Translations under genes and position numbers: made by a program
Notes under the pieces: model-generated
What the model was told of the DNA's origin: nothing
The model's database searches: none
What the model saw: the letters and a program-made list of their open reading frames with translations, nothing else
Shown: piece by piece, positions 15,295 through 34,706 of the stretch
How the letters are laid out: each line of letters begins with the position of its first letter
Numbering within the stretch: the first letter of the stretch is position 1
Assembly (NCBI GenBank): GCA_030697525.1
Contig: JAUYPW010000013.1
Span: forward strand, 2,293 to 66,292
Direction of reading: 5' to 3'
From: a bacterium
GTDB lineage: Bacteria; Patescibacteriota; Minisyncoccia; Sungbacterales; HO2-52-23
DNA: 64,000 nucleotides

Positions 15295-15730
15295 GACTGA
15301 AGGTTTTTTATTAGTAAACATTCCTTTTCTTCATAGACGTCTTCATCGTCACCGGCTAGGTTTAAAATATATTATAGCCGGCTCAACCGCGGCTGGGGTA
15401 GACCTGATCCTTCTTTTTCTTTTAACAGATATGGTGGGTATGTGGTATTTTTATTCAGCAATTATAGCCTATATATGCTCTTTTTTCACCAGCTTTTTTC
15501 TGCAAAAGTTCTGGACTTTTAGAGACAATGACCGGAGTAGAATAAAAAAGCAATTGGCTATATACATAGCTACTGCCGGAGTGAGCCTGACATTAAATTC
15601 ATTTTTTATGTTTGTTTTTGTGAGCTTCTTTCAAATCTGGTATCTGACGGCCCAGTTTATAACCTCTGCTCTGCTAGCTTTTGGCAGTTTTATACTCAAC
15701 AAAACAGTTACATTTAAAAAATTATCATAA
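15260..15730 (+). CDS. GtrA-like small polytopic membrane protein (putative polyprenyl-phosphate-sugar flippase)
   Basis: The GtrA signature is LKYIIAGSTAAGVDLILLFLLTDMVGMWYFYSAIIAYICSFFTSFFLQKFWTFRD, with four predicted TM segments. The only in-frame ATG (15260) overlaps the upstream GT by 35 nt, so the true start may be a non-ATG codon further downstream. Confidence 0.55.
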   Translation: MTSHIYKLLRDKTEGFLLVNIPFLHRRLHRHRLGLKYIIAGSTAAGVDLILLFLLTDMVGMWYFYSAIIAYICSFFTSFFLQKFWTFRDNDRSRIKKQLAIYIATAGVSLTLNSFFMFVFVSFFQIWYLTAQFITSALLAFGSFILNKTVTFKKLS

Positions 15731-21150: not shown

Positions 21151-22710
21151 ATGCGGACACCGAAAGTTCTTTTTATTTACCCACCGATACAGCTTACGGA
21201 TATAGAAACCCCTCGTCCTGATGGGTCACTAGGACCTCTTTACTTGGCTGGAGCTTTGCGAGAAATAGGAATTGAAGCAGACATAATAGACGCCAGCGTC
21301 GGCACTCCGGAAGATGATGTAAAAGATACTTTCCATAGAAGCGTATCACAGGAAAACGGTTTGATCCGTATTGGTATGTCTTGGGAACGTATAGAAGAGG
21401 TTCTGGGACAAAGGAATTATGATATTATAGGTATACATTCCAATTTTACTCCCCAGACCCGAATGGTTCTGAAGGTTGCCGAAATAGCCAAAAAAATCAA
21501 CCCGGAGACTTTAGTTATATCTGGCGGAGTAAACGCCCGTGCTATACCTAAATATCTTTTCCGCGATGGACTCGTGGATCTTGTCTGCACCACGGAAGGT
21601 GAAAAAGTAATGGTAGATATCGTTAATGGATGGACGAGAGACCAATCCATTAAAGGGTTGCAGGGAATACCCGGAACAATTTGCAGAAAAAGCGAAAGAA
21701 AGAATGCCGAAATTTTAGCTACTCCTCTGGGACTAAACACCGTGACTTCTGATTTGGATAAACTTCCCATTCCGGCTTGGGATAAACTGCCGTTTGAAAA
21801 GTACGATCAAATATCCGCAACCCCAGGAATATCCTTGATTGGCCATAACTTGCGCCACGCATCCATGATGACTTCCCGCGGTTGCCCTTTCCGCTGTCTT
21901 TATTGCCACATCTCCAGAGAAAAAGGAGATGGACTGGAAGATACTGGCGACATCGGTTCTTATCGCGTAAAATCGGTTGATAGGGTGTTTAAAGAAATAG
22001 AAATTCTTAAACATCTGGGGGTAAAAAGAGTTTTTCTAGAAGACGATAGTTTGCTTGCCAAGAAAAGCAGAGTGAAAGAAATTTTTAACGGCCTGCTGGG
22101 TGCTGGTCTTACCATGTTGGGAATAAATGGAGTAAATCTTGTACATTTTTTCCAAAGAAATAATGTAGGCAAGCTTGTGCCGGATGAAGACTATATGCAG
22201 CTCCTACAATCTTCCGGCTTTGGCCAAATTGTCTTTCCAATTGAGTCGGGTTCCCAAAGGATTCTGGATAAGTATGCTACCGCCAAATTAAAACTACCCA
22301 TAATGGATGTGGTGGGGCTAGTACAAGTCGCCAAGAAGGTTGGGATAGTCTGTCCCATAAATATGATGATTGGATTTCCGGATGAGAGCGAAGAGGAGAT
22401 GCTAATGTCAGTTGATCTTGCGCGTAAGTTGATTGATGCCGGAGCTCCTTACGTTACTTTCTTCATTCCTATCCCTTTCCCCGGATGCGATCTTTATGAT
22501 ATTGCTCTTGCGGGAGGGTATCTTAATCAAGAGTTTGACCCGGATATTTTCAATTGGAAGAAGCCGGTTATGGAAAACACCGTTGTCGCTCCGCAAAGGA
22601 TAGAAGAAATACGCGAGTGGGCTCAAGGAACTGTAAACACCAAAGAACACGTTGCCAATAGAATAAAAGAAAGCGCTGGAGCCAGAAGATGGGACTCCAA
22701 CGATTTATAA
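21151..22710 (+). CDS. B12-binding (cobalamin-dependent) radical SAM enzyme, class B radical SAM methyltransferase-like
   Basis: The N-terminal B12-binding Rossmann region is KVLFIYPP...LYLAGALREIGIEADIIDA...IIGIHSNF. The radical SAM CX3CX2C motif is MMTSRGCPFRCLYCH. A strong SD, AAGGAGGT, sits 6 nt upstream. Confidence 0.8.
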   Translation: MRTPKVLFIYPPIQLTDIETPRPDGSLGPLYLAGALREIGIEADIIDASVGTPEDDVKDTFHRSVSQENGLIRIGMSWERIEEVLGQRNYDIIGIHSNFTPQTRMVLKVAEIAKKINPETLVISGGVNARAIPKYLFRDGLVDLVCTTEGEKVMVDIVNGWTRDQSIKGLQGIPGTICRKSERKNAEILATPLGLNTVTSDLDKLPIPAWDKLPFEKYDQISATPGISLIGHNLRHASMMTSRGCPFRCLYCHISREKGDGLEDTGDIGSYRVKSVDRVFKEIEILKHLGVKRVFLEDDSLLAKKSRVKEIFNGLLGAGLTMLGINGVNLVHFFQRNNVGKLVPDEDYMQLLQSSGFGQIVFPIESGSQRILDKYATAKLKLPIMDVVGLVQVAKKVGIVCPINMMIGFPDESEEEMLMSVDLARKLIDAGAPYVTFFIPIPFPGCDLYDIALAGGYLNQEFDPDIFNWKKPVMENTVVAPQRIEEIREWAQGTVNTKEHVANRIKESAGARRWDSNDL

Positions 22711-22750: not shown

Positions 22751-22785
22751 GTGACAAGTTTAGCATAAACTAGGTAGTATATATT
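22751..22785 (+). promoter_or_regulatory. sigma70-like promoter (TGACAA - 17 nt - TAGTAT) ending about 6 nt before the ATG, which implies a leaderless or near-leaderless transcript
   Basis: GTGACAAGTTTAGCATAAACTAGGTAGTATATATT|ATG has no SD sequence. It is the same extended motif as at 21052 and 59269. Confidence 0.45.
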
Positions 22786-23421
22786 ATGAATAACAATAAT
22801 TCCTATGCTGAATCGTTTCTCCAGCAAATAAACGAGATTAGCACAGTTTTGAAGGTCTTATATGGCGCTAAGCTGGATCAGGCTGTAAACCTGCTTTTTG
22901 ATGCTTGGCGAGATGGTAGGTGGGTGTATATCATGGGTAACGGCGGTTCGGCCTCAACGGCCACGCATTTTGCCTCGGATTTGGCTAAAACGATTTGTGA
23001 TACCCCACAAGATTCAGGGCTAAAAGCCCTAGCTTTGGTTGATAATATTCCTCTGGTTAGCGCCCTGACCAATGATTGGGGTTGGGACAATCTTTATCTC
23101 AATCAATTAAAAAATTTTTATGTCCCCGGGGGCGTAGGTATTGGTATTAGTGTTCATGGGGGAAGCGGCAAAGAAATTGCTGGCCAGTGGTCGCAAAATC
23201 TGTTACGAGGACTGCAATTTATAAAAGACAAAGGCGGCAAGACCATAGGGTTAAGTGGTTTTGACGGCGGACCGATGAAAGATTTGGTAGATATCGGTAT
23301 TGTGGTGCCAGCCAATTCAACCCCGGTTGTAGAGGGCATGCATGTTGTTTTACACCACCTGCTAGTATTTGGCCTTAAAGAAAAAATTAATGAACACAAG
23401 AAAAATAGCCCTATTTATTGA
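22786..23421 (+). CDS. gmhA: D-sedoheptulose-7-phosphate isomerase (SIS domain), GmhA-like
   Basis: The SIS-domain motif is VYIMGNGGSASTATHFASDL. The length is ~210 aa, with about 50 aa before the GNGGS motif as in GmhA. Confidence 0.75.
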   Translation: MNNNNSYAESFLQQINEISTVLKVLYGAKLDQAVNLLFDAWRDGRWVYIMGNGGSASTATHFASDLAKTICDTPQDSGLKALALVDNIPLVSALTNDWGWDNLYLNQLKNFYVPGGVGIGISVHGGSGKEIAGQWSQNLLRGLQFIKDKGGKTIGLSGFDGGPMKDLVDIGIVVPANSTPVVEGMHVVLHHLLVFGLKEKINEHKKNSPIY

Positions 23422-23944
23422 CCGAGACGGGGTAATCAATGATACGGTTGATAGAGGCGAAGTTTTTTTTGTAAAAGGAAAGAAAGTGCGCTGGACAGCT
23501 CCTTTTAATCGCGAAGAATTTAAATTTAAACCCGGCGTGCATAATGCTCTGGCGGCAACAAAATCCTTAGGCTATATGAATATTTTAGTTACCAACCAGC
23601 CCGACGTTGGCTATGGCAATATGACCGTAGAAGAACATGACCACATGATGTTTCTGGTCAGACAACTGCCCTTGGATGATATTTATATATGTCTGCATAC
23701 CAGGTTTGATACTTGCGGTTGTAAAAAACCACTGCCGGGCATGATCACGGAAGCTGCTATAAAATGGGATATTGATTTGCCGCGCTCATTTGTGGTGGGG
23801 GATACCGCAAATGATGTGGGCGCTGGTAAGGCTGCTGGTTGCCGGACTATAATTTTAGATCATCCGTATAATCAAGATGTTGCGACTGATGTTAGATTAT
23901 TTGATTTGCAAGAGCTAGTAAGGTTTTTATCCAGAACACGCTAA
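23390..23944 (+). CDS. gmhB: HAD-IIIA phosphatase, D-glycero-D-manno-heptose-1,7-bisphosphate phosphatase GmhB-like
   Basis: The HAD motif I is IALFIDRDGVIN. It is followed by VTNQPDVGYG... and a Cys cluster CxxxxxC..C. The start is taken at MNTRK; an upstream in-frame ATG at 23369 is an alternative. Confidence 0.7.
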   Translation: MNTRKIALFIDRDGVINDTVDRGEVFFVKGKKVRWTAPFNREEFKFKPGVHNALAATKSLGYMNILVTNQPDVGYGNMTVEEHDHMMFLVRQLPLDDIYICLHTRFDTCGCKKPLPGMITEAAIKWDIDLPRSFVVGDTANDVGAGKAAGCRTIILDHPYNQDVATDVRLFDLQELVRFLSRTR

Positions 23945-23950
23945 TTAAAA

Positions 23951-23987
23951 AGCCAATCTTTACCACAGAGATTGGTCCTGTTTTTTA
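23951..23987 (+). terminator. rho-independent terminator
   Basis: CCAATCT-ttaccacag-AGATTGG followed by TTTTTT. Confidence 0.55.
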
Positions 23988-24044
23988 TCATAAGGTCGCT
24001 ATAAAAATGTACAAAATTGTTATAAATTGTTTAATAAAAAAATT

Positions 24045-24779
24045 ATGAAAATTTTTATTGATAGCGCCAATTTAACCGATATAGAAGAAGGTCTCAAACG
24101 CGGTTTTGCTCAAGGAGTGACCACCAACCCCTCGCTTCTGGCCAAAGAACCCAAATCCTCGTTTGAGGAACATGTAAAAAAGATAGTTGAACTGATAAAT
24201 CGATATCAGCCCGGGATGAGTTTAAGCATAGAAGTATTTTCAAAAGATCCGTCAGAAATACTTTCCCAAGCTCAGAGATTTGTAAAAGATTTTTCTTATC
24301 CCCAGCTAAGCATAAAAGTTCAGATCGGCTGGAACGAATTAGAAACTATAGCTAAGTTAAGCAAAATGGGAATTTCTGTTAATTGTACGGCGTGTATGAG
24401 CGTGACTCAAGCAGTAATGGCGGCGCGCGCCGGCGCCAAATATGTCAGTATTTTTTGGGGGCGTATACGGGACGGGGGTACAGAGCTGGAAACTGCTGCC
24501 CAACGAAATCATTTAAAAAGCAAAAAAACCTTTGATGATAAAGATTTTGACCCCGAATTTGTTGTCAACTCAACCAGAAAAATATTGGATAACGACAAGG
24601 TAGAGTCAGAAATAATAGTCGGCAGCATAAGAAGCCTTACGGATATCAGAGACGCGGGGATAGCCGGGGCTCATATAGTTACCATACCACCCAAGTTTTT
24701 CCCGGATATGACAAGTCATTTCAAAACCGACCAGGTGGTTAACCAATTTTTAAATGACTTTAAGAGCTGGCTAAGCTAA
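24045..24779 (+). CDS. transaldolase / fructose-6-phosphate aldolase family (TalC/FSA-type), plausible sedoheptulose-7-P supplier
   Basis: MKIFIDSANLTDIEEGLKRGFAQGVTTNPSLLAKE matches the short transaldolase N-terminus (FxDTAN...GVTTNPSL). Confidence 0.75.
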   Translation: MKIFIDSANLTDIEEGLKRGFAQGVTTNPSLLAKEPKSSFEEHVKKIVELINRYQPGMSLSIEVFSKDPSEILSQAQRFVKDFSYPQLSIKVQIGWNELETIAKLSKMGISVNCTACMSVTQAVMAARAGAKYVSIFWGRIRDGGTELETAAQRNHLKSKKTFDDKDFDPEFVVNSTRKILDNDKVESEIIVGSIRSLTDIRDAGIAGAHIVTIPPKFFPDMTSHFKTDQVVNQFLNDFKSWLS

Positions 24780-24793
24780 AATTTATAAAGCTG

Positions 24794-25903
24794 TTGATGA
24801 AAATTGAATTAGTGAATTTAAAAAGGCAATACAACCTGCATCGGAAAAAAATATCTTCTGCTGTTTTGAGAGTTCTTGGCAGTGGGAGATATATTCTGGG
24901 TTCTGAAGTAGAAAAATTTGAACGCGAGTTTGCTGATTTCTGTAGGGCCAAACATTGTATAGGTGTTGCTTCCGGCACAGACGCCCTGCACTTATCGCTA
25001 AAAGCTCTGGGAATCAAAAATGGCGATGAGATTATAACCGTCCCAAACTCTTTTGTCGCCACTGCTATGAGCATTTCCATGGTTGGCGCAAAACCTGTTT
25101 TTGTTGATATAGATCCAGAAACCTGCAATATGGATGTGAAGAAGATTACGGACAAGATTACGGCTAAAACCAAAGCTATTATCCCTGTACATCTTTACGG
25201 ACAGCCGGCGGATATGGACTCTATTTTAAAAATAGCGCGCAGACATAATCTGAAGATTATAGAAGACGCATGTCAAGCGCATGGCGCGCTATATAAAGGA
25301 AGGCGCGTAGGAACCCTAGGCGATATAGGAGCCTTTAGTTTTTATCCCAGTAAAAATTTGGGAGGATACGGGGATGGTGGTGCAGTAGTGACCAACAATG
25401 ATGAACTGGCAAAAAAAATCTTTTTATACAGAGTTTATGGCGGAAAGGATAGACATACTTATTTAGCACAGGGGTTGAATTCCAGGCTGGATGCCGTACA
25501 GGCCGCTGTCTTAAGGATCAAATTGAAGCATCTTGACCGATGGAACAAGCAAAGAGCGGCCAAGGTAAAAATGTATGATACTTTGCTCAAAAAAATGCCA
25601 ATAAAGACCATCTCGACCCAGCCTTATACACAATCAGTTCATCACCTCTACGTAATAAGAACCGCACACAGAGACAGCTTGAGAGAATATCTTGCGCATA
25701 AGGGAATTAGCACAGAAATCCATTATCCGGTTCCAATTCATCTTCAACCGTTATATAAAAATCTGGGGTATAGAATAGGAAATTTACCTGTTGCTGAAAC
25801 TGCCGCCAACGAGATTATATCTTTGCCCATATTTCCTGAGATGGAAAATAAAGAAATCAAATATATTACCGATATAATTAGAGAATTTTTCCAAAAACCA
25901 TGA
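24794..25903 (+). CDS. DegT/DnrJ/EryC1/StrS-family PLP-dependent sugar aminotransferase
   Basis: It has the characteristic N-terminus (..LKRQY....I..A...VL.SG.YILG.EVEKFE.EFA.F). The overall length is ~370 aa and it ends ...ISLPIFPEM. Confidence 0.8.
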   Translation: MMKIELVNLKRQYNLHRKKISSAVLRVLGSGRYILGSEVEKFEREFADFCRAKHCIGVASGTDALHLSLKALGIKNGDEIITVPNSFVATAMSISMVGAKPVFVDIDPETCNMDVKKITDKITAKTKAIIPVHLYGQPADMDSILKIARRHNLKIIEDACQAHGALYKGRRVGTLGDIGAFSFYPSKNLGGYGDGGAVVTNNDELAKKIFLYRVYGGKDRHTYLAQGLNSRLDAVQAAVLRIKLKHLDRWNKQRAAKVKMYDTLLKKMPIKTISTQPYTQSVHHLYVIRTAHRDSLREYLAHKGISTEIHYPVPIHLQPLYKNLGYRIGNLPVAETAANEIISLPIFPEMENKEIKYITDIIREFFQKP

Positions 25904-26577
25904 AAGCCGTAATTTTAGCTGCAGGGAGGGGAAAAAGAATGGGTCCTCTTACTCGTCACACCCCCAAACCCTTATTAGCCGTTGAGGGTAAACCTTTATT
26001 GGATTGTATTTTAAGCACACTTCCTTTGGATATAGATGAAGTTATTATTGTTGTGGGTTATTTGGGAGAGAAGATAATTAAACGGTATGGGGAACTTTAT
26101 TTTGGCAAAAAAATATCTTATGTGTATCAGAAAAAATTAAACGGAACTGCCCAAGCCCTTTTTCTAACCAAAAGATTTTTTAACAAAAACAAAGAACGTT
26201 TCGCCGTGATTTATGGAGATGAATTGCCAACCAAACGGCAAATGGAAAAATGCTTGTCATATAAATACAGCTGGTTGTGTCGGAAAACAAAAGACCCAAG
26301 CCAATCCGGCATAGCTACCTTGTCCAATAAGGGATACATAATAGACGCAGTGGAGAAACCAAAACACAGTAAGACCAACCTGGCGGTTGCCGGTCTTATG
26401 GTTATAGACACAGACATATTTAATTATAAAATGACCAAACACGAAAACAGTGAATATTATCTCGCCTCAGTTATGCAGGGGTTCGTAAAAGAACACAAAG
26501 TTTATCCTGTAAAAGGAGACCATTATGTTGATTTTGGTTCACCCGAAGATTTAAAAAGGAGTAATAACAATAAATAA
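25900..26577 (+). CDS. sugar-phosphate nucleotidyltransferase, HddC-like (heptose-1-P guanylyltransferase candidate)
   Basis: The NTP-transferase N-terminus is MKAVILAAGRGKRMGPLTRHTPKPLL. The protein is 225 aa. ATGA start/stop overlap. Confidence 0.7.
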   Translation: MKAVILAAGRGKRMGPLTRHTPKPLLAVEGKPLLDCILSTLPLDIDEVIIVVGYLGEKIIKRYGELYFGKKISYVYQKKLNGTAQALFLTKRFFNKNKERFAVIYGDELPTKRQMEKCLSYKYSWLCRKTKDPSQSGIATLSNKGYIIDAVEKPKHSKTNLAVAGLMVIDTDIFNYKMTKHENSEYYLASVMQGFVKEHKVYPVKGDHYVDFGSPEDLKRSNNNK

Positions 26578-26578
26578 C

Positions 26579-27517
26579 ATGATATCTATTGTAATACCCG
26601 TTTATAACGAAGAAGCGACTCTAAGAGAACTACACCAGCGCGTAGTGGAAGTCATGCTGAAACAAAATGACAGCTACGAAATAATTTTTATAAACGACGG
26701 TTCGACAGACAGAACTTATGAAGTGGCTAAAGATTTACGGCCTCTTAAAATGATTACACTGCAGAGGAATTACGGAGATACGCCAGCCCTCGATGTGGGC
26801 ATACAGGAGGCAAAAGGAGATATTATAATTTTTATGGATGCGGATCTGCAAGATGATCCGGGAGAATTGATTAAAATGCTACATAAACTTTCTGAAGGTT
26901 GTGACGTAATAGTCAGCTGGCGCAGAAAAAGGTATGATAGACCGTCTCGTATTATTTTTTCTCGTTTTGCCAATATGATTGTAAGTTATGTTCTCGGAGT
27001 AAATATACATGACTTTGGCTGCGGTTTAAAAATATATAAAAGTAAATTTATAAAAGATTTTAGATTATGGGGTGAGGCTCAGGTTTTTTTACCAGCTATT
27101 GCCAAAGAAAGAGGGGCAAGGATATGCGAGGTTGAAATAAGCCACTATCCGAGAAAGTACGGTAGTTCAAAGATCAAGATATCCAAAATGATAAAAGGAG
27201 GTTTCGATTTAATCAGTGTGGCTTTTTTTATAAAATATTTTTCTAAACCACTTAGATTTTTCGGGGGATGGGGCTTGTTCTCAATTGTTCTGTCGTTCAC
27301 TGCCTTTATTTCCTCTCTTTTGTTGCGTATATATAATACGCCCCTTACTACGACTCCTCTTCCTACAGTAGGCACCCTTTTTGCCTTAACCGGCGTTATA
27401 CTTTTTATGTTAGGCTTATTGGCGGAGATCGTGCTAAGGAACTATTACGCGGTAGTAGGTCGGTCCCCTTATTTTATTCGCGAAATCATAGACAATGGTC
27501 GGAGTGTTAAAGAATAA
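26579..27517 (+). CDS. GT2 polyprenyl-phosphate glycosyltransferase (GtrB/DPM1-like) with two C-terminal TM helices
   Basis: MISIVIPVYNEE...FINDGSTDRT...DADLQDDP carries the DxD motif. The C-terminal TM segments are WGLFSIVLSFTAFISSLLL and LFALTGVILFMLGLLAEIV. Confidence 0.8.
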   Translation: MISIVIPVYNEEATLRELHQRVVEVMLKQNDSYEIIFINDGSTDRTYEVAKDLRPLKMITLQRNYGDTPALDVGIQEAKGDIIIFMDADLQDDPGELIKMLHKLSEGCDVIVSWRRKRYDRPSRIIFSRFANMIVSYVLGVNIHDFGCGLKIYKSKFIKDFRLWGEAQVFLPAIAKERGARICEVEISHYPRKYGSSKIKISKMIKGGFDLISVAFFIKYFSKPLRFFGGWGLFSIVLSFTAFISSLLLRIYNTPLTTTPLPTVGTLFALTGVILFMLGLLAEIVLRNYYAVVGRSPYFIREIIDNGRSVKE

Positions 27518-28640
27518 AAAAAAATTGAGAATAGGAATCATAGGCGGTGGTATATTTGGGACCACCTGCGCTTTAGTTCTTGGAAAGAAGCACTCGGTAG
27601 TTTTATACGAACGCCATTCCGATATACTGACCGAGGCTTCTTATGCTAATCAATATAGACACCATATGGGTTATCACTATCCACGAAGTCCTGAAACAAT
27701 CGAGGAAATAAAAAGTTCCACAAAAGAATTCGAGACTTTTTATATAGATATGGTAGAAAACATACCCGCTTATTATTGTGTTTCCAAAAGTGATAGTCTT
27801 GTATCCTCTGACAAGTTCTTGCAAATATGCAACAGCAAAGACCTGCCCCACAAGAAGGAGTTTCCAGAAAGGTCTTTGTTAAATTCTTACAATATTTCTA
27901 TTTGTGTAAAAACACCGGAGGGAGTATATGATTATGAAAAATTGAAAAAAAATATTTGGCTAAGGCTCAAGCAAGAAAAAGGCATAAAATTAAAGCTGGG
28001 ATATAGTGTTATGGGTGGTAAGTTGGATGCTAAGGGGAAGAAACTTATTGTGGCCAGAAGTCCAAAAAACAGCCTCAGTGAAGAAATGTTTGACTGTGTA
28101 ATAAATGCCACCTATGCTAACTATAACAATTTTTGCGGCTGGTTTAATTTTAAAAAAAAACCGATTGATTTAAGGTTAAAGGAGGTCATTGTTTTAAAGA
28201 TCAAAAGTAGAAAGAAGTGCGCTATTACCATTGTGGACGGGCCATTTGCTACGCTTGTCCCTATTAGTGGCAGCGGAGATTTGTATACTTTCGGAGATGT
28301 TCCTCTCTCTGTACACCGCCATTTAGGTCTTGCTGAAAACATATCTATATATGATAACGCAGGCAATCTTCCATATTCAAAATGGGAATCAATGCGAGAA
28401 AGATGTGTCAAGTGGTTCCCTATCCTCCGGAAAGCTGAATATATAAAATCTATGTTTGTTATCCTGCCGGTTGAACTAGAAAACATAAAAAATGACGCCA
28501 GACCCACTGATATCACAGGCCATGGATCTGGTTGCTGGTCAATTTTGAGTGGTAAGATTATAACGTGTGTGTCTGCGGCCATGACCATACTTAAAGAAGT
28601 AGAGAGCTACACACAAACAAATGAAAAAAAAGATAACTAG
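27495..28640 (+). CDS. FAD/NAD(P)-binding oxidoreductase, function unknown
   Basis: The N-terminal Rossmann dinucleotide fold is KLRIGIIGGGIFGTTCALVLGKKHSVVLYER. No confident family assignment. Confidence 0.5.
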   Translation: MVGVLKNKKKLRIGIIGGGIFGTTCALVLGKKHSVVLYERHSDILTEASYANQYRHHMGYHYPRSPETIEEIKSSTKEFETFYIDMVENIPAYYCVSKSDSLVSSDKFLQICNSKDLPHKKEFPERSLLNSYNISICVKTPEGVYDYEKLKKNIWLRLKQEKGIKLKLGYSVMGGKLDAKGKKLIVARSPKNSLSEEMFDCVINATYANYNNFCGWFNFKKKPIDLRLKEVIVLKIKSRKKCAITIVDGPFATLVPISGSGDLYTFGDVPLSVHRHLGLAENISIYDNAGNLPYSKWESMRERCVKWFPILRKAEYIKSMFVILPVELENIKNDARPTDITGHGSGCWSILSGKIITCVSAAMTILKEVESYTQTNEKKDN

Positions 28641-28641
28641 A

Positions 28642-29619
28642 ATGATTATATTGAGTAAAACACCTTTTCGTCTGCCTCTGGGGGGCGGTTCTACAGACAT
28701 GCCGTCATATTACGAAAAATACAGCGGTTTTATATTTTCTGTAACAATAAATATGTATATGGATATTTTTATCAAGGAGCCAATTACAGACGACTTAGTT
28801 CATATGCACTATATGAGATATGAAGCTGAAGATTCTTCAGACAAAATTAAACACACACTGGGGAAGGAGGCATTAAAGATGATGAATATAAAAAACAAAA
28901 TTCTAGTTTCTTTTAATGCTGATACTCCGGCTGGGACAGGGCTCGGATCTTCCGGGGCTTGCGCGGTTGGTCTGCTCAAGGGCCTGGCTTTATATAAAGG
29001 GGGGACTCTAAGCAATATTGAGGCGGCGGAGAGATCTTTTATTATAACCCAAAATCTCGGATTGCCAGACGGCAAGCAAGATCCATATGTCTGCGCCTTA
29101 GGCGGTTTTGTGGTCTTGGAAATAGATAAAAATGGTAAAGTCAAAGTTACCAAACCAGCAATATCTAAAAATACCGCTGACCGATTTATAAACAATAGTC
29201 TTTTCTTTTACACAGGGATAAAACGTGATAGCGAACCCATTTTATCTGCTCAAAATACCTCCCAAGTCCTTGAGTTAAAACACCGGACCAAAGAGATTGG
29301 TAAAGAAATATATAAATGTTTTTTGAAGGGGGATCTTGATAAATTCGGAAAATTGCTAGATGAGCACTGGAGGGTAAAAAAAATGATGTCCGGCAGTATA
29401 AGTAACACTTGGCTGGATGAAATTTACCTGGTAGCCCAAAAAGCAGGGGCCCTGGGAGGTAAAATTATGGGTGCCGGAGGTGGAGGGTATTTTATGTTTT
29501 ACTGTCCTTCAGAAAAAATAAAGGCTAAGGTTAGAAAGACGTTGCAAAGGTTTAAACTTAGAGAGATGAATTTTGCTATTGATGAACATGGTGCTCGAGC
29601 CGACGCGGTTTATTTATAA
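28642..29619 (+). CDS. GHMP-family sugar kinase, HddA-like (D-glycero-D-manno-heptose 7-phosphate kinase candidate)
   Basis: The GHMP ATP-binding motif is PAGTGLGSSGACAVGLLKGL. The N-terminus is MIILSKTPFRLPLGGGSTD. The C-terminal segment KIMGAGGGGYFMFY is present. Confidence 0.7.
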   Translation: MIILSKTPFRLPLGGGSTDMPSYYEKYSGFIFSVTINMYMDIFIKEPITDDLVHMHYMRYEAEDSSDKIKHTLGKEALKMMNIKNKILVSFNADTPAGTGLGSSGACAVGLLKGLALYKGGTLSNIEAAERSFIITQNLGLPDGKQDPYVCALGGFVVLEIDKNGKVKVTKPAISKNTADRFINNSLFFYTGIKRDSEPILSAQNTSQVLELKHRTKEIGKEIYKCFLKGDLDKFGKLLDEHWRVKKMMSGSISNTWLDEIYLVAQKAGALGGKIMGAGGGGYFMFYCPSEKIKAKVRKTLQRFKLREMNFAIDEHGARADAVYL

Positions 29620-29628
29620 TTTGTAAAA

Positions 29629-30480
29629 ATGTCTAATAACAACATAGGCTACATATTAAGTTGCCCAAATTGTAAATCTAGACTTCTAATTGAGAAAGAT
29701 TTTTGTAAATGTAGCCAATGCGGCGCTTTGTATAAACACGAAAGCGGGATATTTTTTTTCCATGACTCGGGGGAATATAATACTGGTGCTGATAAATCCG
29801 ACAATCTTATTTTTCAAATAAAGTCTCTCATTAAGAAATCCCCTAAACTATTTTATTTTCTTAATCATACACTGGGTATTCATGCTGGAAAATCAGTCAA
29901 AGATTTCCTAAGAAATATACCAAAAGGAGCACTAATCATAAACTTAGGTTCCGGATCTAATATTATAAGAGATGACGTCATAAATCTTGATTCTTATCCT
30001 TACCCTGGAGTTAAGATAGTGTCGGATGTGCACAAGTTGCCCTTTAAGGACGCATCTGTAGACGTGGTCGTAGCCGAATCCTTGCTTGAGCATGTTAAGA
30101 ATCCGGAGGCAGTGGTAAAAGAGATTTATCGGGTATTGAAGCCCGGAGGAACAATCTATATTACGACCCCCTTCATCATAGGGTTCCATTCTTCTCCGGA
30201 TGATTATTATCGTTGGACCTACTCGGGCCTTAGGATTTTATTTAAAGATTTTAAAGAAATAGAATTGGGGTCAGCGGTAGGGCCTACTGTAGCCTTTACT
30301 TATATTCTAAGGGAATGGTTAGCGGTGTTTTTTTCTTTCAATTCGGCCTATATCTACCAATTGGTAACCCTATTCCTGATGTTCATCTTGGCCCCTCTTA
30401 ATTTATTAGATTTTATACTCATTAAATATAAAATTTCTAAAAACATAGCCCATATCTTCTATTTTGTCGGTAAAAAATAA
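29629..30480 (+). CDS. SAM-dependent methyltransferase with N-terminal Trm112-like zinc ribbon and C-terminal hydrophobic tail
   Basis: The zinc ribbon is CPNCKSRL...CKCSQCG. The MTase motifs are INLGSGSN, VVVAESLLEHV and VLKPGGTIYITTP. A TM-like C-terminus is present. Confidence 0.65.
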   Translation: MSNNNIGYILSCPNCKSRLLIEKDFCKCSQCGALYKHESGIFFFHDSGEYNTGADKSDNLIFQIKSLIKKSPKLFYFLNHTLGIHAGKSVKDFLRNIPKGALIINLGSGSNIIRDDVINLDSYPYPGVKIVSDVHKLPFKDASVDVVVAESLLEHVKNPEAVVKEIYRVLKPGGTIYITTPFIIGFHSSPDDYYRWTYSGLRILFKDFKEIELGSAVGPTVAFTYILREWLAVFFSFNSAYIYQLVTLFLMFILAPLNLLDFILIKYKISKNIAHIFYFVGKK

Positions 30481-30496
30481 CCTTCCTTGTTTTATT

Positions 30497-32314
30497 ATGT
30501 TTAGACGTCACTATATATGTATTGTTTGTGCGGTGCTAGTCGGGCTTATATATGTTTTGCCTAACCTTATTTTTATTAATTCTCTGGGCGAGGAATATAA
30601 AGGCATACCCATGTTGCAGACAGCCAATGAAGACGCTTATTTGGCTAGGATAAGAGAGATTGTAGATGGGCATTGGCTGGTTGGATCCTTTACCTCTTTT
30701 GAATATAAAAATTATTTGCCGCTAACTCCCCCGACTGGGGAATTTTTCTACGCTATTCCAAGCCTGCTATTCAATATTTCTCCAGTTAATACCCTGATCG
30801 CCAGCAAGCTATTTTTCCCAGCCATTTTATTTGTTTTGGTGTATTATTTGATTTATTTATTGATAGAATCAGGTGGTTCTGTATGGCAAAGAAAACTTAG
30901 TTCTTTAGCAGGAGCCTTTGTTGTAACTCTGGGTTACGACCTGGTAGATTATCGTAATTTGTGGGGCTTTCTTTCCGGTAAAATTGATTTGACGGACCAA
31001 TTTCTTCTATGGGCCAGACCAGTCAATCCTATCTTGGGGGCCATATTTTTATTTAGCTTCCTAATTATATTATGGGGGATACTTACAAAATCTGAAAATT
31101 CCTGTATAAGAATACTCACGGCGGGAATGTTTCTTGCTCTAATGATGGGTAGCTATTTTTTTAGCTGGGGAATAGCGGTTTCTATTTTAGGAACAGTAGT
31201 ACTAATATATCTTTCCCAAAAAAACTTTAAAATCGTCAAAAGGTTGGTCGGAGTTGTGTTGGTTGCTCTGGTTTTGTCGTCTCCATACTGGTACATGTCT
31301 TGGTTGGCCTCACAAAATCCGTGGTACAAGGACTCTATATTGAGAAGTGGCATTTTTTATACACACCACCCTATTTTAAATAAGTTTATTTTAGCATCTC
31401 TAGTTTTTTATTTCATCCTTATCTTTATAGACGCGTTTAAATTTCTTGGTGGCCATTTTCGATTGAGAGAGATAGCGTCCTTTCTCAAAAAAGAACAACT
31501 TAATGAACGGAATATTTTCTGTCTGGCTACTCTCCTTGGTTCTCTTTGGGCCTATAATCAACAGGTTGTAACCGGAGTGACCCTATGGCCTTATCACTTT
31601 GTCCAGTACTCTATCCCGCTGGTTTTTGTTTTTTTTATTACCCTGCTTCATAATATAATAAAAAAATGGTCAAAATTGATTTGGTTTTTTGTGGTATTTT
31701 TGATTATAATTTCATCTCTGGCATTTGGCATATACACACAGACAAGTGTTTTTTATAAACACTTTGGAGATTATAAAAAATTACAATTATATGATTCAGT
31801 TATATCCTGGCTCAACAATAAAGAAAAAGACTGTGTGGTGCTGATAAGCAATGATTCTGATTCAGCAATAAAGATAGAAAACTTGATACCATCCTTTACC
31901 CACTGCAACCTATATATTTCTAATGCCTTTTTGTCTCTAATGCCAAGCGATAGGATATATCATAACTATTTGATCTATTTGAGACTAAAAGGAATTTCTG
32001 CTAAGAGTATAGATAAATATCTAAATGAACACAAACCCGAAATCAGAAAATTTCTGCTCAATAATTGGAAAGAAGTATACCAAGTAAAGAACTTTCCAGA
32101 CTTCACCTATTCTAAATCAGAAAGCAGAATAGCTAACATAGCCAAAGATTATAAAGATTTTTCAACTCGCGATTTTCGATCAGAACTTAGCAGATATAAA
32201 CTTGATTTTATTCTTTCGGTTGGTGAACTTGACAAAAACATTCTAAAGCAATTACCCGGCACCAAATTAGATTTCAAGTCTGATAATACCTTTATCTATA
32301 AGTTCGCCAAATAA
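30497..32314 (+). CDS. large polytopic integral membrane protein (GT-C-like / polymerase-like candidate) with C-terminal soluble domain
   Basis: There are ≥10 predicted TM helices in the first ~420 aa and a ~190-aa hydrophilic C-terminal domain. No recognisable catalytic motif. The start is taken at MFRRHY; 30464 is an alternative. Confidence 0.55.
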   Translation: MFRRHYICIVCAVLVGLIYVLPNLIFINSLGEEYKGIPMLQTANEDAYLARIREIVDGHWLVGSFTSFEYKNYLPLTPPTGEFFYAIPSLLFNISPVNTLIASKLFFPAILFVLVYYLIYLLIESGGSVWQRKLSSLAGAFVVTLGYDLVDYRNLWGFLSGKIDLTDQFLLWARPVNPILGAIFLFSFLIILWGILTKSENSCIRILTAGMFLALMMGSYFFSWGIAVSILGTVVLIYLSQKNFKIVKRLVGVVLVALVLSSPYWYMSWLASQNPWYKDSILRSGIFYTHHPILNKFILASLVFYFILIFIDAFKFLGGHFRLREIASFLKKEQLNERNIFCLATLLGSLWAYNQQVVTGVTLWPYHFVQYSIPLVFVFFITLLHNIIKKWSKLIWFFVVFLIIISSLAFGIYTQTSVFYKHFGDYKKLQLYDSVISWLNNKEKDCVVLISNDSDSAIKIENLIPSFTHCNLYISNAFLSLMPSDRIYHNYLIYLRLKGISAKSIDKYLNEHKPEIRKFLLNNWKEVYQVKNFPDFTYSKSESRIANIAKDYKDFSTRDFRSELSRYKLDFILSVGELDKNILKQLPGTKLDFKSDNTFIYKFAK

Positions 32315-32399
32315 TTATAGGAATGTTTAAAAAATATCGGAAACAAACTCAAACAATAAGGTGTTATAAAACTATAAAAGCTTATTAAGTCAAACACTA

Positions 32400-33476
32400 A
32401 TGTCCAAAAAAGCATTAATAACTGGGGTAACCGGACAGGATGGCTCTTACCTTGCAGAGCTTTTGTTAAAAAAAGGTTACCGGGTATATGGTTTGCAAAG
32501 AGGGGCCAGTGTGCCCAACACTGCCCGGGTGGATCATTTAAACGGAGGATCCTCCCCAGCCAACTTTTTTATGGCCTATGCTGATTTATCCGACAGCTCC
32601 AGTTTAACAAACATTATAAACAGAATTAAGCCGGACGAAATTTATAATCTAGGCGCACAGAGCCATGTACAAATAAGTTTTGATATACCAGAATATACTG
32701 CCAATGTAGATGCGCTGGGCCCTCTGAGGATTTTAGAAATAATTCGTGGCCTGAATTTGCCCACTAGATATTATCAGGCTAGTTCGTCGGAGATGTTTGG
32801 AAAAGTTCTTGCCACACCGCAAAATGAAAAAACTCCTCTTAATCCGCAGTCTCCTTATGGACTCTCAAAGGTTTTTGCTTTCCATATCACTAAAATTTAC
32901 CGCGAAGGATACGGAATATTTGCATCTAATGGTATGCTCTTCAATCACGAATCTCCGCGGCGCGGATTGAATTTTGTAACTAGAAAAATTACCGTGGGCA
33001 TGGCCCGCATAAAACTTGGCCTGCAAAAAACGCTACAACTGGGCAATCTTGAATCCAAACGTGATTGGGGATATGCCAAGGATTATGCGGAAGCTGTTTG
33101 GATGATTCTTCAGCACAAGGAGCCGGATGATTTTGTAATAGCTACCGGTGAGACACACACAGTCCGTGAATTTGTCCAAGAAGTCGCTGGTCATTTGGAT
33201 TTTGACTTGGTTTGGAGAGGAAAGGGTCTTAAGGAGCACGGAATTGATAGAAAAAGCGGCAAAGTAATAATAGAAATAAGCCCGAAATATTTTCGTCCTA
33301 AAGAAGTAGATACCCTGATAGGTGATGCTTCAAAAGCTCGCAGGATTCTAGGGTGGAAACCAAAAACAAAATTTGTCCAATTAGCTAAACTTATGGCTTT
33401 AGCGGATCTTGAAAATGTTAAACGTGGGCAAGAATTGGGCCTTGCTATGGAGACATCCAGCAATAGAAATTCTTAA
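32400..33476 (+). CDS. gmd: GDP-mannose 4,6-dehydratase family (Gmd; possibly a GDP-heptose 4,6-dehydratase in this context)
   Basis: [37 protein letters not shown] is near-canonical for Gmd. The catalytic S..Y...K region is intact. Confidence 0.9.
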
Positions 33477-33515: not shown

Positions 33516-34706
33516 ATGAGGATATATTTTATTACTACAAAACTAAACTTTGTTAATGCTGGCGGATCAGTCAGAGATATTGACCTGCGCGCTAAAGCCC
33601 TAGTAGAAATGGGGCATACGGTGACCGTTATAAGCGCCTTCCCCGAATCAAATATTATCACCGAATCTTTGCCATATCAGGTCAAAGAAGAATTTATTCG
33701 CTCGCGGGGCTTGTTAGGTATTCAAATAGGCGCCCACCGCATTATAAAAAAATATGAACAAAAAGCCGATGTTTTCCACGTTGATGGCCAAGTGTTTTTA
33801 TATGCTGCTGGTTGGTACCGTCTGATGGGTGGTCGCGTGCCGGTTCTAAGTCTTTTCAATCACTGGCTTAATGCCTGGGCGGACGAAACCCAAGCTGACG
33901 TCAAACCAGTTAAACCCTACTGGTGGTGGGCCAAATGGCTGAAGAAAAAACTGCGTTTTTTCTTGGAACGAAGGCTGGGAGTATTTATTGCCAACCGGGC
34001 CGATGCTTTTATTTTTGATACCCCACAGATAGAAAAAAAATTTATTAGTCTTGGTTTCAACGCACACAAGGGATTTGTTTTGCCAGATTTTGTTGATACT
34101 CAAGGATCGCTTGCAGGGGAGTCTATGACGATGGATAAGATTATATCCCATCAGCAACCACGCCGAGGTATAGTTACCATACTACTGACCGGCAGAATGT
34201 TGCCGGAGAAGGGTTTTGATATGGCAATTAAAGCTTTTGTCTCCCTACCCAATAAAGAGAATTATCGTGTTATTATGAGCGGTACTGGTCCGGAATTAAA
34301 TAATCTCCAGCGCCAAGTCTCCGAACTAAAGTTGCAGGATTTTTTTTATTTTCCTGGTTGGGTGGATAGGGAAGAATTGTTAAGTTTTTTCCAGCAAGCG
34401 CAGATTTTTATTTTTCCGAATTGGTGGCCAGAATATGGTTCAGTGACGTTTGAAGAGGCTATGTCTTTTGGATTAGCAAGTATTATACCAGACGGAGGGG
34501 CTTTAGAGTGGTTGTCGGGCGGTACGGCCTTCACGTTTAAAAGTAATAACGTAGCTGACCTTTCCCGTGCTATGCAGCAATTAGGCGAGGATACTAATCT
34601 CAGAATTAAGATAGCACAAAAAAGCTTGGAGCATATCGTCAAGCTCGATTATCGAATAGTCGGCAGAGAATTGGAAAGAATACTCAAATCTATTGTCCAG
34701 ATTTAA
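33516..34706 (+). CDS. GT4 family glycosyltransferase
   Basis: The GT-B C-terminal region is PNWWPEYGSVTFEEAMSFGLASIIPDGG. The N-terminus is MRIYFITTKLNFVNAGGS. Confidence 0.7.
   Translation: MRIYFITTKLNFVNAGGSVRDIDLRAKALVEMGHTVTVISAFPESNIITESLPYQVKEEFIRSRGLLGIQIGAHRIIKKYEQKADVFHVDGQVFLYAAGWYRLMGGRVPVLSLFNHWLNAWADETQADVKPVKPYWWWAKWLKKKLRFFLERRLGVFIANRADAFIFDTPQIEKKFISLGFNAHKGFVLPDFVDTQGSLAGESMTMDKIISHQQPRRGIVTILLTGRMLPEKGFDMAIKAFVSLPNKENYRVIMSGTGPELNNLQRQVSELKLQDFFYFPGWVDREELLSFFQQAQIFIFPNWWPEYGSVTFEEAMSFGLASIIPDGGALEWLSGGTAFTFKSNNVADLSRAMQQLGEDTNLRIKIAQKSLEHIVKLDYRIVGRELERILKSIVQI

Follow-up and report, generated by a model that had tools for sequence, protein, structure and literature searches.

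The locus considered here raises the question of whether a set of putative heptose genes and a neighbouring dehydratase gene, gmd, serve one pathway or two. The window, i.e. the whole 64 kb stretch of DNA that was analysed, holds eleven co-directional ORFs on the + strand at positions 22786-33476 (Table 1). The ORF list and Pfam and NCBIfam profile searches agree with the gene set and domains given by a first-pass annotation, although several start codons are uncertain and TTG starts disagree with the gene calls. That annotation had read the genes as a GDP-heptose route coupled to Gmd and an aminotransferase. Our analysis points instead to two distinct functional units, placed side by side by the architecture of the locus: a cassette whose probable role is to load a lipid carrier with a modified (amino, methylated) heptose for cell-surface transfer in a Patescibacteria-type bacterium, and a frame that contains Gmd. 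We regard this full reading, cassette route and frame together, as reasonably probable.

Table 1. Features of the locus, with positions in the window.
Feature	Position	Strand	Basis or remark
GtrA-family small membrane protein, candidate polyprenyl-P-sugar flippase	15260..15730	+	PF04138, 78 bits
B12-binding radical SAM enzyme, probably C-methyltransferase	21151..22710	+	Pfam B12-binding and Radical_SAM
SIS_2 sugar-phosphate isomerase, GmhA-like, candidate sedoheptulose-7-P isomerase	22786..23421	+	TIGR00441, PDB
HAD-IIIA phosphatase, GmhB-like, candidate heptose 1,7-bisphosphate 7-phosphatase	23369..23944	+	NCBIfam; start codon uncertain
TAL_FSA, short transaldolase/fructose-6-P aldolase family, candidate sedoheptulose-7-P supplier	24027..24779	+	PF00923
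DegT-family PLP aminotransferase, sugar 3-aminotransferase type	24794..25903	+	PDB matches
NTP_transferase, sugar-1-phosphate nucleotidyltransferase	25900..26577	+	PF00483
GT2 polyprenyl-phosphate glycosyltransferase, ArnC/GtrB/PgfS type	26579..27517	+	NF007986, PgfS model
DAO-type FAD oxidoreductase, proposed keto-group generator	27495..28640	+	PF01266
GHMP kinase, HddA/WcbL-like, candidate heptose-7-P anomeric kinase	28621..29619	+	NF049969, PDB
SAM methyltransferase, N-terminal zinc ribbon, C-terminal membrane anchor	29629..30480	+	Methyltransf_11
U616, GT-C-fold membrane glycosyltransferase, 616 aa, predicted extracytoplasmic lipid-linked-sugar transferase	30464..32314	+	Fold
Gmd, canonical GDP-mannose 4,6-dehydratase by its scores, conserved frame and not heptose cassette	32400..33476	+	TIGR01472, PDB
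GT4 glycosyltransferase of the frame, likely GDP-sugar user	33516..34706	+	Glycos_transf_1, Glyco_transf_4

Judged by its scores, the Gmd of the window is a canonical GDP-mannose 4,6-dehydratase. It reaches 486 bits against TIGR01472 (cut-off 415) and 396-417 bits against solved Gmds from E. coli, human, Aquifex and others, while it scores 116 bits against 7us5, the GDP-heptose 4,6-dehydratase of C. jejuni. In the clustering test named beforehand it groups with bona fide GDP-mannose dehydratases by profile and PDB bit scores, which speaks against the proposal that it acts in the heptose pathway to give a 6-deoxyheptose. The lack of a GDP-fucose synthase partner, on which that proposal had drawn, holds across the whole window. 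Pfam scans covering every ORF of 150 aa or longer revealed no Fcl-like gene in the 64 kb; the only SDRs were Gmd and, at 53243, a PseB/LegB-like dehydratase. In tblastn searches of the window, three Fcl-like proteins of related Patescibacteria gave weak matches to these two genes alone. A downstream enzyme for the Gmd product is not identifiable in the window, which contains neither Fcl nor the WbuC-like cupin found after Gmd in all six relatives.

Two surveys of related loci bear on the proposed coupling. The one centred on the FAD enzyme comprised 80 genomes, and a locus was counted as a module locus when it had the GHMP gene together with two or more of SIS, HAD, and TAL. None of the 26 module loci has a Gmd (at least 250 bits) within 10 kb, and the four Gmd-bearing loci in this survey are all without heptose genes. 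The other survey comprised the six neighbourhoods of the closest Gmd orthologues (L087-L092). All six share a frame with a U616-type GT-C, Gmd, a small cupin, GT4, Capsule_synth, and FkbM, while the cassette upstream of the GT-C varies: L087 and L088 carry RmlB, FdtA, and DegT, L089 carries heptose genes, and L090-L092 carry SDR-based sets. GT4 is found directly downstream of Gmd, past the cupin ORF, in L087, L088, L089, and L092, and immediately upstream of it in L090 and L091. The closest orthologues thus stand mostly beside non-heptose cassettes, and the coupling of Gmd to heptose synthesis is not sustained. L089 has heptose genes and Gmd side by side, and their co-occurrence is therefore not zero.

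The extent of the two units can be read from the comparison with L087. DNA similarity ends at 20150 and returns at 32194, and in L087 an RmlB/FdtA/DegT cassette is found in place of this whole 12 kb heptose stretch. Protein identity to L087 is 68-89% within the frame (Gmd 84%, GT4 77%), falls to 56% for Capsule_synth, which stands at the frame's edge, and reaches only 48-49% for DegT and GT-C. Since L087 keeps the frame while the heptose stretch is swapped, Gmd belongs to a constant frame (Gmd, GT4, Capsule_synth, FkbM), and the heptose genes are a separate, exchangeable cassette beside it. The B12-radical SAM gene, just outside 22786-33476, lies within the region lacking a DNA match to L087 and has an orthologue (at least 300 bits) in 14 of the 26 module loci; on this evidence it is a cassette member as well.

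A transaldolase-fed sedoheptulose-7-P route to a nucleotide-activated heptose, as suggested earlier, is still the best reading of the SIS, GHMP, HAD, NTP, and TAL genes, because the closest solved relatives of the SIS and GHMP proteins are phosphoheptose isomerases and heptose-7-P kinases and because the five genes co-travel, as they do in at least 26 other genomes. Phosphoheptose isomerases make up 12 of the 15 PDB matches of the SIS protein, including the top 12 (50-70 bits), and DiaA makes up two; for the GHMP kinase, heptose kinases are the top four (124-146 bits), with fucokinase next at 60. The HAD-IIIA protein passes the cut-off of TIGR01656 (107 bits) but fails those of the GmhB models (84-93 bits). 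The TAL_FSA protein scores 135 bits against PF00923 and 139 against TIGR00875 (cut-off 246), and its gene is kept beside SIS and HAD in related loci. Further copies of the module occur in Patescibacteria, and DPANN archaea have its core. All four 'heptose' enzymes are, however, far under the NCBIfam equivalog cut-offs: 96 of 209 bits for SIS (TIGR00441), 93 of 178 for the phosphatase, 150 of 600 for the kinase (NF049969, HddA), and 71 of 300 for the NTP transferase (HddC). The sugar could therefore differ in carbon number or stereochemistry. The NTP transferase favours the archaeal GlmU N-terminal domain (152 bits), AglF (124), and RmlA-long (111) over HddC, and in the PDB it scores 72 bits to RmlA-type enzymes and 57 to GMPP. 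Of the GDP-heptose route first annotated, the four enzyme classes thus stand, while the label guanylyltransferase is not borne out by these scores.

The best PDB matches of DegT are 7b0d (412 bits), QdtB (390), DesV (358), WlaRG (319), and WbpE (294), while perosamine synthase scores 211 and ArnB about 180. Its YPSKNLG lysine motif aligns with QdtB, the catalytic Lys is kept, and the protein is 48-49% identical to the FdtA-adjacent DegTs of L087 and L088. It had been thought to aminate the 4-keto product of Gmd; its nearness to 3-aminotransferases and its presence with the flavoenzyme in Gmd-less loci argue against this, while an amino-modified heptose as such is plausible. The window's cassette holds neither a 4,6-dehydratase nor an FdtA-like ketoisomerase, and the flavoenzyme is therefore the only candidate for the keto source.

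The AlphaFold model of the flavoenzyme (pLDDT 91.5) gave Foldseek matches to glycine oxidase, GlpD (TMq 0.75), and sarcosine oxidase, and UDP-galactopyranose mutase was not among them. The substrates known for these DAO-superfamily fold matches are amines, alpha-hydroxy acids, and glycerol-3-P rather than the ring hydroxyls of sugars, and the likeness to GlpD would equally fit C6 oxidation of heptose 7-phosphate. In related loci, no gene accompanies the heptose genes more constantly than that of the FAD enzyme, which has 361 homologues, many of them carrying a fused GFO_IDH_MocA domain. Where the FAD enzyme is stand-alone or fused to GT2, eight loci also have a DegT orthologue (at least 300 bits), as against only one of about 16 loci with a GFO-FAD fusion. 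This distribution fits 'oxidase + transaminase' and 'oxidase + reductase' as alternatives. Against this, the FAD enzyme occurs without a DegT or a GFO domain in several distant module loci, and L043 combines a fusion with a DegT.

GT2, the FAD enzyme, and the methyltransferase had been taken as embedded extras, but they are conserved core members of the module. GT2 matches the ArnC model NF007986 over its full length (159 bits, below cut-off), has two C-terminal hydrophobic segments (227-252 and 259-288), and forms a single fusion protein with the FAD enzyme in P0038 and P0041. The methyltransferase has the zinc ribbon motif CPNC...CSQC and a hydrophobic segment at 237-267, and its orthologue precedes the GT-C gene in L002, L011, L013, and L017. 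U616 has a GT-C fold but no Pfam match and is predicted to be a new, previously unannotated membrane glycosyltransferase. The GtrA gene lies 5.4 kb upstream of the cassette in the window, and GtrA genes adjoin the module in L002, L010, L015, and L020.

From the observed gene content, folds, conservation, and cassette/frame boundaries we infer the chemistry as a whole, including the substrates, the acceptor, the site at which the sugar is oxidised and aminated, and the order of steps, which may take place at the nucleotide or the lipid level. In the exchangeable 'donor cassette' (about 21151-32314), the transaldolase-type enzyme would supply sedoheptulose-7-P, which the GmhA-like isomerase, HddA-like kinase, GmhB-like phosphatase, and nucleotidyltransferase would convert to an NDP-heptose. 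The DAO-fold flavoenzyme would form a ketone by oxidising one heptose hydroxyl, and amination by the QdtB-like DegT would follow, most likely at C3 in view of the relatives of DegT. Methyl groups may be added by the B12-radical SAM enzyme and the membrane-anchored methyltransferase. The ArnC/GtrB-like GT2 would then transfer the sugar to polyprenyl phosphate, GtrA would be a candidate for flipping it, and U616 would transfer it to a surface glycan or protein. The product is likely a polyprenyl-phosphate-linked amino-heptose that is transferred outside the membrane. The second unit, from 32400, would have Gmd and GT4 in a conserved frame building the underlying glycan, together with Capsule_synth, FkbM, PAPS synthesis and a sulfotransferase, and a nonulosonic-acid block.

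The first-pass model, in which Gmd joins the heptose route to give a 4-amino-4,6-dideoxy-heptose, could draw on the common strand, the gap of only 85 nt between cassette and Gmd, the lack of an Fcl, Rmd, or cupin partner in the window, the pairing in L089, and the known heptose 4,6-dehydratases of C. jejuni (PMC10680097). It is nevertheless very unlikely: Gmd passes the GDP-mannose dehydratase equivalog cut-off and scores more than three times higher to true Gmds than to 7us5, Gmd is absent from the 26 heptose modules, the 84%-identical orthologue adjoins a dTDP-3-amino-hexose cassette without heptose genes, DegT resembles 3- rather than 4-aminotransferases, and the NTP transferase scores do not single out GDP as the heptose nucleotide. 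Less probable still is that Gmd and DegT make GDP-perosamine (4-amino-4,6-dideoxy-D-mannose) for GT4, independently of the heptose genes. Perosamine synthases are detectable homologues of DegT, which is the only nearby class known to consume GDP-4-keto-6-deoxymannose, and Gmd has no reductase partner, but the 211 bits of the perosamine synthases contrast with the 390-412 of 3-aminotransferases. Moreover, DegT is inside the swapped cassette (49% identity between window and L087, against 84% for Gmd), and orthologous DegTs occur in seven Gmd-less loci.

A somewhat stronger contender, although improbable, is that the five activation genes serve a different sugar that derives from a ketose phosphate, for instance an octose or an unusual hexose, with the same lipid carrier and GT-C logic. 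Sedoheptulose-7-P is not the only ketose phosphate that FSA/TalC-family aldolases can make, and the low equivalog scores and an NTP transferase that resembles GlmU and RmlA types more than HddC would agree with this. The best solved relatives of the isomerase and kinase are, however, heptose enzymes, with a clear gap for the kinase (124-146 against 60 bits), and isomerase, kinase, phosphatase, and nucleotidyltransferase together are the signature of the D-alpha-D-heptose route of A. thermoaerophilus and C. jejuni.

With an exchangeable heptose cassette beside a Gmd-bearing frame as the preferred reading, several known systems may be compared. The Arn pathway for lipid A aminoarabinose consists of the ArnB aminotransferase, the ArnC GT2, the ArnE/F flippase, and the GT-C ArnT. 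Its sugar comes from UDP-glucuronate with the keto group formed by ArnA, whereas the cassette would use a heptose-type pathway and, as proposed, a flavoenzyme. GT2 and DegT are far under the ArnC and ArnB equivalog cut-offs, and U616 is without detectable sequence similarity to ArnT. Patescibacteria are generally held to be without LPS. Like the GtrA/GtrB/GtrV and streptococcal Pgf systems, the window has a polyprenyl-P GT2, a GtrA-family protein, and a polytopic GT-C, and PgfS is the second-best NCBIfam match of GT2 (131 bits). While those systems use a housekeeping UDP-hexose donor, the window has a dedicated 10-gene pathway that would make and decorate the donor sugar, and its GT-C family is without Pfam coverage.

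The D-alpha-D-heptose route has the same four enzyme classes, with best matches to heptose enzymes, but the window enzymes score at only 24-52% of the equivalog cut-offs, and the nucleotide is predicted only as NDP. The dedicated transaldolase and the flavoenzyme are constant extra members of the window-type module. In C. jejuni, the downstream enzymes are a 7us5-like dehydratase, C3/C5 epimerases, and C4 reductases (PMC10680097), all of which are missing in the window. The dTDP-3-amino-3,6-dideoxyhexose pathways (RmlA, RmlB, QdtA/FdtA, QdtB/FdtB) share with it a DegT closest to QdtB, DesV, and WlaRG, and the FdtA-containing cassettes of L087 and L088 fill the same slot in the locus. Since the cassette is without 4,6-dehydratase and 3,4-ketoisomerase, its keto intermediate must arise in another way.

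Two systems offer precedents in chemistry, with no homology to the window enzymes claimed. In the formation of the septacidin heptosamine, the oxidoreductase SepI oxidises a heptose hydroxyl and SepG then transaminates (PMC9978623). This is a precedent for heptose oxidation-transamination, although SepI works on a nucleoside-linked heptose, at C4', and does not belong to the DAO-fold flavoenzymes. In the DprE1/DprE2 pair, a flavoenzyme oxidises a polyprenyl-P-sugar and a separate reductase finishes the epimerisation. The FAD fold of DprE1 differs (VAO type), but the division of labour parallels that of the GFO-FAD fusions.

Eleven closely packed open reading frames lie on the forward strand across 22786-33476, and Pfam and NCBIfam scans, on which the domain assignments are based, confirmed the domains that the first-pass annotation had described for them. 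The zinc ribbon reported for the methyltransferase is present at its N-terminus (CPNC...CSQC), and the protein carries a hydrophobic anchor at the C-terminus.

Features of the window and of related loci in other genomes (L-numbers)
Feature	Sequence	Position	Strand	Remark
Large PG_binding_1 proteins (1218, 329, 345 aa), Lamin-tail/PKD-domain protein	window	784-8611; 9478-10875	+	upstream of the glycan genes
GtrA gene	window	15260-15730		
SIS_2/GmhA-like; HAD-IIIA/GmhB-like; TAL_FSA	window	within 22786-33476	+	Pfam/NCBIfam
DegT; NTP_transferase; ArnC/GtrB-like GT2; DAO-type FAD oxidoreductase (flavoenzyme)	window	within 22786-33476	+	Pfam/NCBIfam
GHMP kinase/HddA-like; Methyltransf_11 protein; Gmd	window	within 22786-33476	+	Pfam/NCBIfam
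616 aa protein (GT-C)	window	within 22786-33476	+	no family match in Pfam/NCBIfam scans
Fusion, 931 aa: pyruvate-kinase barrel, PUA-like domain, ATP sulfurylase, APS kinase	window	37176-39971	+	
Sulfotransferase	window	39974-40951	+	directly after the fusion
YfhO-like protein, 851 aa	window	40948-43503	-	polytopic GT-C-type candidate
Nonulosonic-acid block: HisF/HisH-like amidotransferase pair, CMP-transferase, GFO oxidoreductase, NeuB, hydrolysing 2-epimerase, PglD-like acetyltransferase, NUDIX, hexapeptide transferase, second DegT, PseB/LegB-like dehydratase	window	43512-54262	+	dehydratase at 53243
Wzx-type flippase	window	54259		after the nonulosonic-acid block
PMT_2 protein, 475 aa	window	55755-57182	-	polytopic GT-C-type candidate
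UbiA prenyltransferase-family gene, small HAD-like phosphatase, SDR, GtrA	L004 (Candidatus Giovannonibacteria CP066687.1)	19207-21944		directly after the heptose module
Counterpart fusion (929 aa) and sulfotransferase	L090	12680-15469		
Cupin after Gmd	L087	10551-10991		
Cupin after Gmd	L088	11073-11453		
Cupin after Gmd	L089	11137-11517		
Cupin after Gmd	L090	11085-11492		
Cupin after Gmd	L091	11085-11465		
Cupin after Gmd	L092	11090-11476		
C-methyltransferase group beside Gmd	L088	7396-9967		
C-methyltransferase group beside Gmd	L090	6439-8779		
C-methyltransferase group beside Gmd	L092	7985-10017		
Flavoenzyme fused to GFO_IDH_MocA (~650-700 aa)	L004, L008-L010, L014, L015, L018, L020, L021, L024, L029, L031, L032, L054, L066			
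Flavoenzyme stand-alone, orthologous DegT nearby	L001, L002, L006, L011-L013, L017, L019			

It was earlier proposed that Gmd acts on GDP-heptose and gives, together with DegT, a 6-deoxy or 4-amino heptose. Such a Gmd-dependent heptose is not supported. The protein matches TIGR01472 with 486.1 bits, passing the equivalog cut-off of 415, over residues 3-339 of 358, and PF16363 with 450 bits. Bacterial, plant and human Gmds of solved structure (7kf3, 2z1m, 1t2a, 1db3 and others) score 396-417 bits, while the C. jejuni GDP-heptose 4,6-dehydratase of the DdahA/WcbK type (PDB 7us5), which represents the heptose dehydratases in this comparison, scores 116. Identity among the 19 known heptose dehydratases of C. 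jejuni is 89-98% (PMC10680097), and 7us5 can thus stand for the C. jejuni class. The enzyme is closer to true Gmds, the very outcome named beforehand as refuting a heptose dehydratase.

Nor is the linkage of Gmd to heptose-nucleotide genes recurrent. The flavoenzyme has 361 homologues, many of them Patescibacterial; about one third are fused to GFO_IDH_MocA and a few to a GT2, as in the proteins P0038 and P0041. A survey limited to one genome per species comprised 80 loci, which were annotated by phmmer with the window proteins. The FAD enzyme is adjoined by a GHMP kinase and at least two of SIS, HAD and TAL in 26 of them, and the gene set of the window recurs in the neighbourhoods of L002, L004 and L006. 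Patescibacterial module loci usually also encode an NTP transferase, a GT2 and a B12-radical SAM enzyme (rSAM), and often a methyltransferase and the 616 aa protein, while a reduced core (GHMP, SIS, HAD, TAL, FAD, NTP, rSAM) is found in DPANN archaea, Dehalococcoidales, Nitrospina and others. A Gmd of at least 250 bits was found within 10 kb of the module at none of the 26 loci. The four Gmd-bearing loci of the survey lack heptose genes, and in L045 and L048 Gmd is followed by Fcl-like SDRs.

When the search was centred on Gmd, the closest orthologues (67-84% identity) were all Patescibacterial, and 15 of the best 120 have a longest contig equal in length to that listed for a homologue of the 616 aa protein, a rough proxy for a shared contig. 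The six readable neighbourhoods (L087-L092) have one architecture: variable sugar genes are followed by a Pfam-less protein of 586-609 aa from the 616 aa family and then, zero to four genes further on, by Gmd and a WbuC-like cupin of 126-146 aa. In L087, L088, L089 and L092 the next gene after the cupin is GT4, which in L090 and L091 comes just before Gmd instead. Genes for Capsule_synth and FkbM belong to this architecture, often together with counterparts of the nonulosonic-acid block, the sulfurylase-kinase fusion and the sulfotransferase of the window. The variable part of L087 and L088 consists of RmlB (TIGR01181, 412 bits), an NTP-transferase-GT2 fusion, FdtA and DegT, by sequence a classical dTDP-3-amino-3,6-dideoxyhexose set; L090-L092 have SDR-based sets, and only L089, one of the six, has heptose genes.

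The closest of these relatives, L087, shares with the window MT17 (89% protein identity), MT18 (84%), the upstream GT4 (68%), Gmd (84%), the downstream GT4 (77%) and Capsule_synth (56%), while DegT and the GT-C protein are 49 and 48% identical; no counterparts matching the rSAM, SIS, HAD, TAL, FAD, GHMP and cassette methyltransferase proteins of the window were found there. DNA similarity extends up to window position 20150, returns at 32194, about 120 nt ahead of the stop of the GT-C gene, and from there covers the intergenic region and Gmd. From these identities and limits, Gmd is assigned to a constant frame, and the heptose genes, DegT and GT-C to what is, by sequence, an exchangeable cassette. 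This division reconciles the two surveys and explains the adjacency of Gmd and the heptose genes without functional coupling. That Gmd and GT4 are a window-specific insertion was also considered, and rejected because Gmd lies near a member of the GT-C family throughout the Gmd-centred survey. Scanning 20900-34900 for promoters and terminators gave 45 and 16, where 38.5 and 13.2 were expected; this is indistinguishable from shuffled sequence, and thus uninformative on whether transcription is interrupted between GT-C and Gmd.

Gmd is most likely an ordinary GDP-mannose dehydratase, whose product GDP-4-keto-6-deoxymannose would go into a 6-deoxyhexose for the frame GT4. The lack of a GDP-fucose-synthase partner, noted before, holds for the whole window according to Pfam scans and tblastn. 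The only further SDR among the other window ORFs of at least 150 aa is the PseB/LegB-type dehydratase, which sits within the nonulosonic-acid block; tblastn with three Fcl-like proteins of related Patescibacteria gave nothing beyond the known SDRs, and the same searches disclosed no further SDR or cupin that could be the partner epimerase or C4 reductase for a 4-keto-6-deoxyheptose. The WbuC-like cupin that accompanies Gmd in all six relatives is not hidden in the window either (tblastn), and only 39 nt separate Gmd from GT4. With neither Fcl nor cupin, the window offers no candidate for the enzyme that consumes the Gmd product; such an enzyme may be encoded elsewhere in the genome.

The conserved cupin has the motif set HxH...QEC...GGH...NGPF and matches WbuC weakly (34 bits, cut-off 42); in these bacteria it may be a partner of Gmd that has gone unrecognised. 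In three relatives Gmd lies next to a TylC3-type sugar C-methyltransferase (Methyltransf_13/14) accompanied by an aldo-keto reductase, a NUDIX protein or both, which suggests that the Gmd product of L088, L090 and L092 is C-methylated and is reduced by a non-SDR reductase. None of these genes is found beside Gmd in the window.

The four enzyme classes of the GDP-heptose route are all encoded, as had been claimed, and their co-occurrence is conserved, but each protein falls far below its NCBIfam equivalog cut-off (GmhA 96 of 209 bits, GmhB 93 of 178, HddA 150 of 600, HddC 71 of 300). The closest characterised proteins are heptose enzymes, the exception being the nucleotidyltransferase, which is related most closely to RmlA and GlmU types and is not demonstrably a guanylyltransferase. 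Among solved structures, heptose-7-phosphate kinases match the GHMP kinase with 124-146 bits and the next family with 60, and the best relatives of the SIS isomerase are phosphoheptose isomerases. Since the kinase and isomerase relatives are heptose enzymes and the transaldolase is constant, the pathway sugar is best read as a sedoheptulose-7-phosphate-derived NDP-heptose, a quite probable assignment. Sequence similarity does not discriminate GDP as the nucleotide or sedoheptulose-7-phosphate as the substrate, and all substrate assignments are ones that we infer. In the literature searched, the only related statement is a KEGG-level one on heptose nucleotide synthesis in Paceibacteria (PMC9166423).

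DegT retains the PLP lysine, its motif FSFYPSKNLG aligning with that of QdtB and 7b0d, and is by this residue predicted to be an aminotransferase rather than a dehydratase. The best structure matches are 7b0d (412 bits), QdtB (390), DesV (358), WlaRG (319) and WbpE (294), compared to 120-211 bits for 4-aminotransferases (perosamine synthase 211, ArnB ~180). QdtB, DesV, WlaRG and WbpE are C3-specific enzymes, with structures from the Holden laboratory. The window DegT also shares 48-49% identity with the DegTs that accompany FdtA in L087 and L088. The window encodes no FdtA/QdtA or WbpB-type enzyme, nor did tblastn reveal a hidden FdtA.

The cassette contains neither a 4,6-dehydratase nor a ketoisomerase, which leaves the DAO-fold flavoenzyme as the sole candidate for producing a keto group. 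The structure model of this flavoenzyme (pLDDT 91.5) matches the folds of glycine oxidase, GlpD and sarcosine oxidase; a pyranose/furanose mutase resembling UDP-galactopyranose mutase was rejected on these matches. The phyletic pattern supports the flavoenzyme as keto source: an orthologous DegT occurs with a stand-alone or GT2-fused flavoenzyme at eight loci, while loci with the GFO-FAD fusion lack it with one exception (L043), making the two states nearly mutually exclusive. This fits oxidation followed by transamination in the one case and by reduction (epimerisation) in the other. The relatives of DegT point to C3 as the position of the keto and amino groups. The GlpD-like fold of the model suggests an alternative, in which C6 of the heptose 7-phosphate would be oxidised and aminated. 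Under the C3 reading, the product would be a 3-amino heptose.

The flavoenzyme family crosses domains. DPANN archaeal loci are L023, L049, L078, L080 and L086, and the GHMP, SIS, HAD, TAL, NTP and rSAM core accompanies it in Woese-, Pace- and other DPANN archaeal MAGs; further carriers are Mycobacterium sp. (L058, L068) and Methyloversatilis (L076). In Mycobacterium, Burkholderiales, Acidobacteria and others no heptose genes accompany it, so that more than one substrate is probable for the family. The genes that follow the heptose module in L004 are reminiscent of the mycobacterial decaprenyl-phospho-arabinose route.

The GT2 matches the ArnC model over its whole length (positions 8-314 of 316), with the catalytic domain followed by two C-terminal hydrophobic membrane segments (227-252 and 259-288). 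Encoded beside it, the 616 aa protein is of the polytopic GT-C fold, with some ten membrane segments and a soluble C-terminal domain; its first loop holds the invariant acidic residues D68 and E80. By analogy, the cassette most likely works as an Arn/Gtr-like relay: the NDP-(amino)heptose would be loaded onto polyprenyl phosphate and flipped, and GT-C would move the sugar to an acceptor at the surface. Methyl groups would be added at some stage by the B12-rSAM enzyme and by the methyltransferase with the membrane anchor. With two further GT-C-type candidates in the window, the locus may use several lipid-linked donors.

The 931 aa fusion and the adjoining sulfotransferase suggest that PAPS is made locally to sulfate a surface glycan. 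The nonulosonic-acid block appears complete and is of the legionaminic/pseudaminic type, and such a block follows the frame in L089-L091 as well. The PG_binding_1 and Lamin-tail/PKD proteins are possibly cell-envelope or attachment proteins, and thereby candidate acceptors for glycosylation.

Patescibacteria (CPR) and DPANN archaea are ultra-small episymbionts attached to host cells, and to our knowledge almost nothing is known about their surface chemistry. Full-text literature searches, including ones aimed at heptose in CPR/DPANN or at lipid-linked heptose with GT-C, gave no account of the module or of this GT-C family. We tentatively propose, with the odds rather against it, an undescribed route to a polyprenyl-phosphate-linked 3-amino-3-deoxy heptose (C- or N-methylated), in which the flavoenzyme would be an oxidase replacing dehydratase and ketoisomerase, a new Pfam-less GT-C family would deliver the sugar to the cell surface, the core would be common to Patescibacteria and DPANN, and the cassette would be swappable in a fixed glycan locus. 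If true, such swapping would be a mechanism of surface variation. The locus offers a concrete, testable proposal, that a conserved glycan frame takes interchangeable donor-sugar cassettes, one of them building a decorated heptose by enzymes from families without characterised members, the widespread DAO-fold flavoenzymes and the Pfam-less GT-C proteins. A Gmd next to heptose genes is no evidence of a 6-deoxyheptose, and the annotation GT-C glycosyltransferase can be given to such "hypothetical" proteins of 600 aa.

Compared with the GDP-heptose pathways of A. thermoaerophilus and C. jejuni, the route in the window is alike in enzyme classes only. The proposed cassette chemistry parallels that of QdtA/QdtB, but the keto sugar would be made differently, and the formation of the heptosamine of septacidin is a precedent for the amination (PMC9978623). 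As a relay, the predicted system would work like ArnB/ArnC/ArnT and GtrA/B/V, but with a dedicated heptose-type donor pathway.
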